64,000 bases of DNA from Rickettsiales bacterium. GTDB lineage: Bacteria > Pseudomonadota > Alphaproteobacteria > Rickettsiales > UBA1997. How positions within the stretch are numbered: the first letter of the stretch is position 1; the number at the start of each line of letters is the position of its first letter. Positions 54,706-56,040 of the stretch are shown piece by piece. Under the pieces are notes generated by a model, which saw nothing but the letters and a program-made list of their open reading frames with translations, ran no database searches and was not told the DNA's origin. The position numbers were made by a program, and so were the translations under genes. The stretch spans positions 11,956 to 75,955 of the forward strand of contig CBFIDI010000001.1 in assembly GCA_965661355.1 (NCBI GenBank). The letters run 5' to 3'.

Positions 54706-56040
54706 ATGACAATATTTAAAAAAATAAATATATTACCAGTTGTTCTTTTGCATTTTGCATTATTTACTTTTGTAAATAATGTTGACGCTTCGCAATTGCC
54801 ACATTTTTTGGGCACCGAAAAAAAATTTAGAAGCTATGTTTATAACCCAAATGAAGTTTATCGTTATCTGGGGCATTATACATATCAGGGTTTTATTGAA
54901 TTTGGCAAAGATGAAAAAATAAGCACCATAACCATGGGCGATCCGTCGTTGTGGCTTTTTGAGCATTTAAGTAACAGGCTATTCTTAAAACCAGTAGGAG
55001 AGGGAAGTTCTGAAACTAATATGACGGTAATAACAGATAAAAGAATTTATCATTTTGAGCTAACCGCCAAAGAAGCGAGAAGCATAGATGATCAAGATTT
55101 AATTTTTGTGGCAAAATTTGCTTACCCCGACGATAAAGATAAAAATATTCTACAATTTCCGCGCAGCTTGGCTTCTGATGAACCCGATTTGAGGGATTTA
55201 AGTAAATATAATTTTCAATATCAATATACTGGCGAAACCTCTATTACGCCGCTTAAGGTTTTTGACAATGGTGAATTTACATATTTTCAGTTTTCGCATA
55301 AAAGCGCCGAGGTTCCGGCAATATTTTCTGTTGACTCGCAAGGCTATGAATCTTTGGTCAATTTTAGAGCGGCTGGGGACTATATTATTGTTGAAAAGGT
55401 TGCACAACAATTTACCTTGAGAAATGGATCGGATATTGTTTGCGTTTATAATTCAGGGGCAATAAATTCAGGTATGCGATCTGAACCCTCGGCAAGAAGG
55501 CCGCCTTCGGTTCCTAACTTTGCTGGGTCTTCAACTTTCTCGCCGCAATCTAGGTCGCCACAAAACTTTGCGCCACCACAAGATAATGGCTTTTTTGGCG
55601 CGCCAAGAAATGAGCAAAGTTTAAGCTATCCAGGGGCGCCAACTAGGTCGGGCCCAGCCTTTTCTTCGCCACAAGCTAGCTTTCCACAGCTTGGCCCAAG
55701 GAAATCTGGAGTCGCCAGAAGAAGCAGGGCTCAAGAACAGCAAAATTTTAACACTGGACAACCAAGCCAAGAATTTTTTAGATCAACTTCTAATAATGTT
55801 AGGGGAGCAGAGAATAATGAGGCATTTCTTGAAGGTTTGCTGGGTGGCGAAAAGACTGGGGTGCAAACTTTTAGCGGAAGGCGGGCTGGGGGTTCTGGCG
55901 GTCAGCAACCTAGTGCAGGACAACAAATTAACAGGGCGCCCGTAGCTTCTGGCGCAGATCAGCAAGCTGGAGGTGGCGCAAATCCTTTTCAACCCGGATC
56001 TTTTGAGCCGCCATACCCTGGCGCACCACCAAGATTTTAA
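54706..56040 (+). CDS. virB9: Type IV secretion system protein VirB9 with a roughly 190-aa low-complexity C-terminal tail
   Basis: A signal peptide, then the N-terminal domain YRYLGHYTYQGFIEFGKDEKISTITMGDPSLWLFEHLSNRLFLKPV..TNMTVITDKRIYHFEL. The C-terminal domain is NFQYQYTGE..PLKVFDNGEFTYFQF..VPAIFSVD..ESLVNFR..TLRNGSDIVCVYN. Residues 251-444 are P/G/Q/S/A-rich. Confidence 0.8.
   Translation: MTIFKKINILPVVLLHFALFTFVNNVDASQLPHFLGTEKKFRSYVYNPNEVYRYLGHYTYQGFIEFGKDEKISTITMGDPSLWLFEHLSNRLFLKPVGEGSSETNMTVITDKRIYHFELTAKEARSIDDQDLIFVAKFAYPDDKDKNILQFPRSLASDEPDLRDLSKYNFQYQYTGETSITPLKVFDNGEFTYFQFSHKSAEVPAIFSVDSQGYESLVNFRAAGDYIIVEKVAQQFTLRNGSDIVCVYNSGAINSGMRSEPSARRPPSVPNFAGSSTFSPQSRSPQNFAPPQDNGFFGAPRNEQSLSYPGAPTRSGPAFSSPQASFPQLGPRKSGVARRSRAQEQQNFNTGQPSQEFFRSTSNNVRGAENNEAFLEGLLGGEKTGVQTFSGRRAGGSGGQQPSAGQQINRAPVASGADQQAGGGANPFQPGSFEPPYPGAPPRF

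Follow-up and report, generated by a model that had tools for sequence, protein, structure and literature searches.

A predicted disordered, clade-type C-terminal extension on VirB9 of a Rickettsiales bacterium

The virB9 gene and its C-terminal extension

The DNA analysed here is a 64,000-nucleotide stretch (the window) of the genome of a Rickettsiales bacterium of the UBA1997 lineage (assembly GCA_965661355.1, contig CBFIDI010000001.1, positions 11,956 to 75,955 of the forward strand). It contains an rvhB9-I-like virB9 gene (54706..56040, plus strand) of 444 codons plus stop, recognised from the list of open reading frames (ORFs), Pfam, the sequences of solved structures and the NCBIfam equivalog TIGR02781. 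VirB9 is one of the core structural subunits from which type IV secretion systems (T4SS) are built, and Rickettsiales deliver their effectors mainly through the rvh system. Beyond its canonical domains, the encoded protein continues into a tail rich in glycine, serine, proline, alanine and glutamine. We hold with considerable confidence that this is a canonical VirB9 carrying a real disordered extension of a type characteristic of its clade. All features of the gene described below lie on the plus strand.

As judged from its sequence, the gene product is a full-length canonical VirB9 and a member of the VirB9/CagX family. Residues 1-28 probably form a Sec signal peptide (MTIFKKINILPVVLLHFALFTFVNNVDA followed by SQ; 54706..54789); the hydrophobic N-terminus with its VDA/SQ site was read by eye, an AlphaFold2 model built on a 94-sequence alignment has a helix at residues 6-29, and conservation among homologs starts at Q30. 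The N- and C-terminal beta domains follow at residues 41-249 (54826..55452), where Pfam PF03524 (VirB9/TrbG/CagX) is matched with an E-value of 4.4e-57 and a score of 193.5 bits (cut-off 34.2), over positions 3-197 of the 198 in the profile. TIGR02781 spans residues 14-250 (E 1.8e-62). In a search against the sequences of solved structures, TrwF of R388 (7o3j_B, 266 amino acids) matches residues 31-264 (E 1.5e-24), and the matches to VirB9 of X. citri (6gyb_b, E 5.7e-10) and to the C-terminal domain of pKM101 TraO (E 5e-8) both stop at residues 246-251. The boundary of VirB9 homology thus lies at about residues 250-264 by all three kinds of evidence, in agreement with an earlier note made from the sequence alone, which had placed the end of the VirB9 domains near residue 250 with 194 codons to follow. 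The beta-rich domains are modelled with a predicted local distance difference test score (pLDDT) of 74-97, above 90 for residues 160-250 and about 75 in the N-terminal domain. Cys246 is invariant across 94 aligned homologs and probably corresponds to the VirB7-linking cysteine reported at C241 in VirB9a of R. typhi (PMC2653234).

The tail proper (residues 251-444; 55456..56037) lies outside VirB9 homology; its commonest residues are glycine (13.9%), serine and proline (12.9% each), alanine (10.3%), glutamine (9.8%), arginine (8.2%) and phenylalanine (7.7%). The description of it as low-complexity and Pro/Gly/Gln/Ser-rich stands: in its richest 60-residue segment P, G, S, Q and A make up a fraction of 0.72, against 0.52 in the next best of the 33 genes of the window. 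It is predicted to be intrinsically disordered, with pLDDT of 34-52 from about residue 260 to residue 444 and a model that is without secondary structure beyond residue 256.

Three parts can be told apart in the tail by comparison with homologs, of which individual proteins are labelled P0002, P0004, P0005, P0007, P0010 and P0270, and related loci L001-L017. The first is a conserved proximal block at residues 270-309 (PNFAGS..QNFAPP..FFGAPRNEQSLSYP; 55513..55632), which reads PNFAGS ... NFAPP ... FFGAP..EQSLSYP in the query and is common to its relatives. In an alignment of 14 sequences (A1, the query and 13 homologs), conservation reaches 90% or more at P291, G298 and Y308 and is complete at P309, and BLAST matches of the tail to P0002, P0007 and P0010 (E 2e-13 to 2.5e-9) fall within this block. 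The second is a lineage-specific low-complexity insertion of about 100 residues (approximately residues 330-430; 55690..55995, bounds approximate), recognised because 12 of the other 13 sequences in A1 have gaps there; only P0004, with a 247-residue tail of its own, overlaps it. The insertion has a G+C content at first, second and third codon positions (GC1/2/3) of 0.62/0.55/0.31 and keeps the coding period (Fisher p = 5e-6), and is most simply read as a tolerated lengthening of a spacer. The third is a C-terminal motif at residues 433-444 (FEPPYPGAPPRF; 56002..56037) shared with P0005, P0007 and P0270: the query has EPPYPGAPPRF, P0005 EPPYPGSLPRF, and both P0007 and P0270 EPPYPGSPPRF, giving the group form EPPYPGxPPRF.

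Neither tandem repeats in the DNA of the tail nor internal repeats in its protein were detected, which gives no support to an origin in the recent expansion of repeats. The recurring F-x-P/G motifs that had been pointed out in the earlier note number seven, not above the count in shuffles of the tail (p = 0.066). An Rfam scan of the window found only two tRNAs, both elsewhere, and no RNA element beneath the tail, and a scan for promoters and terminators gave counts near shuffle expectation.

Integrity of the reading frame

A tail of such composition might in principle be artefactual, if an error of sequencing or assembly had shifted the frame near 55450 and so fused a VirB9 of normal length to a separate downstream ORF. 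This had been raised as a way in which the observation could fail, and the high G+C content of the tail does leave its alternative frames fairly open: frame +1 has only 3 stops, and the remaining forward frame 19. The G+C content at third codon positions (GC3) is nevertheless 0.27-0.39 in every sub-segment of the tail, against 0.47-0.72 at the first two positions, and this period-3 pattern backs the annotated frame throughout. Furthermore, all 120 of the closest homologs read in frame beyond the conserved ...DIVCVYN at the end of the core, and in most of them a motif resembling N-F-x-x-P begins 21-25 residues past VCVYN, so that the N-F-A-x-P of the query stands at the distance typical of the clade. 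P0005 and P0007 conserve both the proximal block and the C-terminal motif in frame, and P0002 the proximal block. Finally, the Logan assembly of run ERR15116646 encodes an identical protein, with no mismatches over 2833 bp. Short of read pile-ups, the stops, the codon-position G+C, the in-frame homologs, the common motifs and the identical second assembly together exclude a frameshift fusion, and we give this explanation almost no weight. On this evidence from sequence, the tail is genuine and in frame, and the long ORF should stay annotated as one gene.

In favour of an artefact, one related locus does have a frame break at this junction of core and tail. In L008 (RFYG01000079.1, approximately 2380-2700) the VirB9 ORF ends right after the core (VCVYNMQTYSNGA followed by a stop), and tail-like sequence (…KKPMQNFGNDPT…) goes on in another frame past that stop. 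This split is the reverse of the case of the query and looks secondary, whether it is a true truncation or due to a frameshift in sequencing. The idea that the tail is a fused downstream gene was likewise rejected, the fused state being universal in the clade and L008 the sole case of a split.

Base composition and the isolated virB8-virB9 pair

The G+C content of the tail (0.510) is the highest of any 585-nucleotide stretch in the window, which has a mean of 0.343 (standard deviation 0.051); the enrichment that had been reported from inspection of the letters is therefore real. As an additional signal it does not survive, for it equals what the amino acids call for. When G+C was computed from the protein sequence, with synonymous codons used as in eight housekeeping genes of the window, 0.518 was expected for the tail, and the same model gave 0.353 for the core, where 0.344 is observed. 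The tail has GC1/2/3 of 0.58/0.61/0.34. Its rise in G+C is due to codons for glycine, proline, alanine and arginine and needs no foreign DNA; for annotation, the spike is compositional and is no sign of gene transfer. An origin of the G+C-rich stretch in foreign DNA was rejected on these grounds and on that of GC3, which in host genes is 0.25-0.32.

Elsewhere in the window, the E2 gene pdhC (50355..51689, plus strand) encodes an inter-domain linker at residues of about 80-150 that is rich in lysine, glutamate, aspartate and asparagine and has a G+C content of 0.33, unlike the VirB9 tail.

Directly upstream of virB9 is a divergent, rvhB8-II-like virB8 gene of 276 codons (53808..54638, plus strand; a weak Pfam VirB8 match, E 7.5e-9). 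The best match of its product among solved structures is 4o3v (E 5.7e-8), with Bartonella and other VirB8 structures at E-values of 3.5e-4 or higher, a modest margin; 4o3v is RvhB8-II of R. typhi (PMC4676284). No T4SS family was matched among the 24 ORFs of the window that were scanned outside this pair. In Rickettsia and Neorickettsia, rvhB8-II and rvhB9-I form an operon of their own (PMC4676284), and virB10, virB11 and virD4 sit in another islet with rvhB8-I and rvhB9-II (PMC4676284; PMC2653234). The C-terminal domain is conserved in RvhB9-I and truncated or degenerate in RvhB9-II (PMC4676284). That of the query matches TraO and TrwF, is modelled with pLDDT above 90 and retains C246, and the gene lies next to its RvhB8-II-like partner and apart from virB10, virB11 and virD4. 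By gene partner and domain integrity, as far as sequence goes, this VirB9 is of the RvhB9-I type of a Rickettsiales-like T4SS.

The lack of a virB10 beside virB9, the proline content of 12.9% and the position of the tail at the G+C maximum of the window could each be taken to mean that a VirB10 is missing or truncated and that the tail takes the place of its proline-rich, periplasm-spanning region, one of the possibilities put forward in the earlier note, or else that the tail is foreign DNA inserted in virB9. Both versions are very improbable. Rickettsiales normally keep rvhB9-I apart from virB10, and the same holds for syntenic relatives with tails of only 71-86 residues; the absence of virB10 is thus an expected arrangement, unrelated to the length of the tail, and an isolated virB8-virB9 pair is to be annotated as normal. 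The GC3 of the tail and of the insertion matches that of host genes, the observed G+C equals the expectation from host codon usage, and X-Pro repeats like those of TonB or VirB10 are lacking.

Tails in related VirB9 proteins

The closest homologs referred to above are VirB9 proteins at 59-76% identity, mostly of metagenomic origin, those that are labelled being 'MAG: Rickettsiales bacterium' (metagenome-assembled genome) or Alphaproteobacteria; they are mutually related, and counts and nominal p-values drawn from them overstate independence. All 120 have tails, of 24-247 residues counted from the conserved VCVYN at the end of the core (median 72, 95th percentile 108), and the query, with 195 residues after VCVYN, has the second longest. 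Pooled, these tails too are rich in proline (16.6%), serine (12.0%), glycine (10.3%) and alanine (8.8%), with 7.3% asparagine. In a broader sample of 150 VirB9 proteins representing 50%-identity clusters, tails have a median length of 22 residues; 29 have tails of at least 40 residues, eight of at least 80, and the longest, at 148, is exceeded by the query. The earlier suggestion that a proline-rich tail is not a feature of VirB9 must accordingly be given up; the note had itself named routine homologous tails as evidence against uniqueness, and such tails occur in every one of the closest homologs. What remains exceptional about the tail is its length among both the 120 and the 150, not its presence, which is routine in the clade. 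By sequence comparison, tails are a trait shared across the clade, with the query an example of extreme length, and the extreme length is due to the insertion of about 100 residues between the proximal block and the C-terminal motif.

The tails evolve much faster than the core. Pairs of homologs have a mean identity of 87% in the last 200 residues of the core and 33% in the tail; P0007 and P0270, for example, are 97% identical in the mature core and 68% identical in the tail, where they differ by an indel of 11 residues. Constraint is evident at the tail ends. A basic residue is present within the last eight residues of 105 of the 120 homologs, whereas composition would predict about 47% (nominal p 1e-20, from non-independent sequences), and conserved ends specific to subclades include EPPYPGxPPRF, MPGQ[AS]Y, PRRPGGV and, in L004-L011, KKSARSRALGLPF.

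L004-L011 constitute a sister VirB9 subclade (for example L006, 7941..9116) with tails of about 130 residues rich in methionine, glutamine and glycine (…MMMQQGGQSQGG…). The genomes are labelled Rickettsiales or Alphaproteobacteria, and one is mislabelled 'Rickettsia typhi'. The C-terminus of these tails, NPLMQKKSARSRALGLPF, is strongly conserved, which indicates that tail ends can be tightly constrained.

In related loci with substantial tails, the DNA of the tail has a G+C content of 0.44-0.63 against 0.32-0.45, and it is enriched in nearly every one. The E2 linkers of the window, shaped by AT bias, are K/E/D/N-rich with a G+C content of 0.33-0.39. This contrast suggests that selection holds the Pro/Gly/Ala/Ser/Gln composition of the tail against AT bias but does not hold its exact sequence, and a conserved composition combined with a variable sequence would be the pattern typical of functional disordered spacers.

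The same rapid turnover of sequence and length would, however, be expected if the tail were a neutral, functionless low-complexity appendage, grown by drift or slippage, most of which has no role. The insertion, without a counterpart in relatives, would in particular lack a role, and VirB9 in general can do without a tail, since RvhB9-I of R. typhi has only 247 amino acids (PMC2653234). The out-of-frame tail of L008 would fit as well. A homology search with the tail by itself gave no match, even to its own protein; this is a weak negative, probably due to filtering for composition, and was not used as evidence of uniqueness. On the other side, a neutral appendage would not be expected in 120 of 120 nearest homologs, nor with conserved motifs at both ends, nor with a G+C-rich Pro/Gly/Ala composition kept against the bias that shapes other linkers of the genome, and no repeats point to recent slippage. 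A largely neutral tail is a serious competitor, in our judgement one with roughly a one-in-four standing.

Comparison with known secretion-system components

The query resembles RvhB9-I (VirB9a of Rickettsiales) in being a full-length VirB9 with both domains and a cysteine near the end of the C-terminal domain (C246; C241 in R. typhi, PMC2653234), and in being encoded directly downstream of an RvhB8-II-like VirB8 (4o3v), away from virB10, virB11 and virD4. It differs in that R. typhi VirB9a is tailless, its 247 amino acids ending six residues past the cysteine (PMC2653234), whereas the query has 195 additional residues and its close relatives 24-247.

No description of VirB9 tails or extensions of this kind was found in full-text literature searches. 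By analogy of composition and position, the nearest counterpart found in the literature is the AQGP-rich C-terminal extension of VirB8 in the bacteria-killing X-T4SS of Xanthomonadales, which is clade-specific, varies in length from 48 to 129 residues and has not been assigned a role (PMC6536674). Both are low-complexity C-terminal extensions of periplasmic T4SS subunits, with A, Q, G and P together making up 47% here and 45-73% there (PMC6536674). The VirB9 tail belongs to the outer-membrane complex of a Rickettsiales-like system, however, and the VirB8 extension to the inner-membrane complex in a different lineage; the former is also rich in serine, arginine and phenylalanine, is longer and has conserved terminal motifs. 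The tail thus falls outside the AQGP-rich VirB8 class, the similarity being one of composition only with no homology implied.

Like the proline-rich regions of VirB10 and TonB, the VirB9 tail is a disordered, proline-containing segment of an envelope-spanning machine. Unlike them, it stands at the C-terminus of an outer-membrane-associated subunit and has neither a membrane anchor nor X-Pro repeats, and energy coupling is not expected for it. With a modest proline content, no repeats, no transmembrane segment and a position after an outer-membrane-associated domain, it does not belong among spacers of the TonB/VirB10 type. The N0 extension of Xanthomonas VirB7, which decorates the periphery of the ring (PMC6536674), is likewise a lineage-specific C-terminal addition to an outer-layer subunit, but N0 is a folded domain whereas the VirB9 tail is predicted to be disordered.

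Possible role of the extension

In outline, the conserved proximal block of the extension (N-F-A-x-P ... G-A-P ... Y-P) is separated by a hypervariable spacer, rich in P, G, S, A and Q, from a short C-terminal motif that is basic and Pro/Gly-rich. The outer layer of the approximately 14-fold T4SS core complex, beneath the outer membrane, is formed by the C-terminal domain of VirB9. Because of this location, the tails would project into the periplasm, radiating from the C-terminal domains of the outer layer as flexible tethers. Their conserved short motifs could then dock on a partner, candidates being neighbouring subunits of the core complex, a VirB7-like lipoprotein, peptidoglycan or a membrane surface, while the length and sequence of the spacer would drift freely as long as its non-collapsing Pro/Gly-rich composition stays. 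There is a precedent in VirB10, a short helix of whose disordered region docks between the N-terminal domains of VirB9 (PMC6536674); a docking motif inside a disordered region is the kind of mechanism proposed here for the VirB9 tail.

Taken as a whole, the description of the protein together with tethering and docking is the best explanation we have and is moderately favoured, the description being far the firmer component; tethering and docking by themselves are a tentative proposal whose chances we put slightly below even. Several points weigh against this account. Tethering and docking are inferred, and the partners are candidates only. The central 100 or so residues are without a homolog and could be functionless. 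Low AlphaFold2 confidence is an indirect measure of disorder. The TIGR02781 score of 211.2 falls slightly below the curated cut-off of 217.7. Lastly, the inventory of T4SS genes covers the 64-kb window, and RvhB9-II, VirB10 and VirB7 encoded elsewhere would lie outside its scope, as would further hallmarks of the rvh system such as second copies of VirB8, VirB9 and VirB4, several copies of VirB6 and the lack of VirB5.

A hypervariable tail on a secretion-system subunit also brings to mind a surface-exposed or host-contacting module of an extracellular epibiont, evolving fast under diversifying selection. The relatives include MAGs labelled Rickettsiales bacterium UBA1997, a family whose members are reported to live in fresh water as epibionts on cryptophyte algae (bioRxiv 10.1101/2023.01.31.526412). 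Part of the C-terminal domain of TraO/VirB9 is reported to protrude from the cell, in work cited in PMC2653234, and the PxxPxR-like proline-rich ends of the tails could in principle bind eukaryotic domains. Short proline-rich motifs arise by chance, however, and any disordered spacer is equally expected to be hypervariable. There is also no evident route by which the tail would be exported, and in solved core complexes it is VirB10, not VirB9, that crosses the outer membrane. A surface module is accordingly judged improbable, though less so than replacement of VirB10.

A bolder form of the tethering and docking proposal would make the extension a selected innovation of freshwater, probably extracellular or epibiotic, Rickettsiales. 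Each core complex would bear 14 disordered Pro/Gly-rich arms, kept G+C-rich against AT pressure, whose terminal motifs would serve as anchors of the outer-membrane complex on peptidoglycan, on a lineage-specific lipoprotein or, if exported, on the host cell surface. We consider this unlikely. If it were true, the T4SS core complex would have in these arms a new accessory element that is absent from intracellular Rickettsia. Under the more cautious proposal of tethering and docking, the core complex would gain an accessory contact if the conserved motifs bind a partner. In any case, a clade-wide disordered extension of the canonical VirB9 copy, without a counterpart in Rickettsia, sets the outer-membrane complex of environmental and possibly extracellular lineages apart in structure from that of the intracellular pathogens to which they are related, and the tail might relate to the extracellular-to-intracellular transition that is discussed for lineages of Rickettsiales.

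Neighbouring genes and other features of the window

Downstream of virB9 is a gene for a DUF3576 lipoprotein (56075..56614, plus strand; Pfam PF12100, E 2.8e-16; lipobox ...VIFSC), considered here as a neighbour only. Its ATG at 56075, as in the gene call of L001, lies 34 nucleotides past the virB9 stop; a longer ORF with a GTG start (55973..56614), which overlaps the 3' end of virB9, probably does not represent the real start. The DUF3576 gene is syntenic in L012, replaced by an ORF of 56 codons in L015 and absent from L013.

Directly upstream of virB8 is a conserved ORF of 306 codons (52711..53631, plus strand), with ORFs of 286-292 codons in the same position in L012, L015 and L017. It has no match in Pfam or NCBIfam. 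Its C-terminus, ...LLGFRFDFGSR, suggests that it may encode an outer-membrane beta-barrel protein, and a link to the T4SS is possible. The gene order rpoC, permease, pdhC, small ORF, ORF of about 290 codons, virB8, virB9, (DUF3576), leuS recurs in L012 and L015, which are the syntenic relatives with shorter tails mentioned above; L013 has virB8-virB9-leuS.

The other genes of the window have housekeeping functions: parAB, gyrA, gatB, an aconitase-family gene, glyA, sucAB, rpoBC and pdhC, with leuS downstream of virB9. An ORF of 415 codons on the minus strand (12461..13708) matches no Pfam family at E <= 1e-5. The leucyl-tRNA synthetase encoded by leuS (56866..60069, plus strand; 1067 amino acids) contains a GNAT domain (Acetyltransf_3, E 1.4e-23) at residues 388-543, just after the editing domain. 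The synthetases of L012 (9759..13004), L013 (9090..12221) and L015 (9230..12361) have a transglutaminase-core domain at the same site instead, after ...KKYDLPIKKVV.N, which amounts to a domain swap at a single site in an essential aminoacyl-tRNA synthetase.

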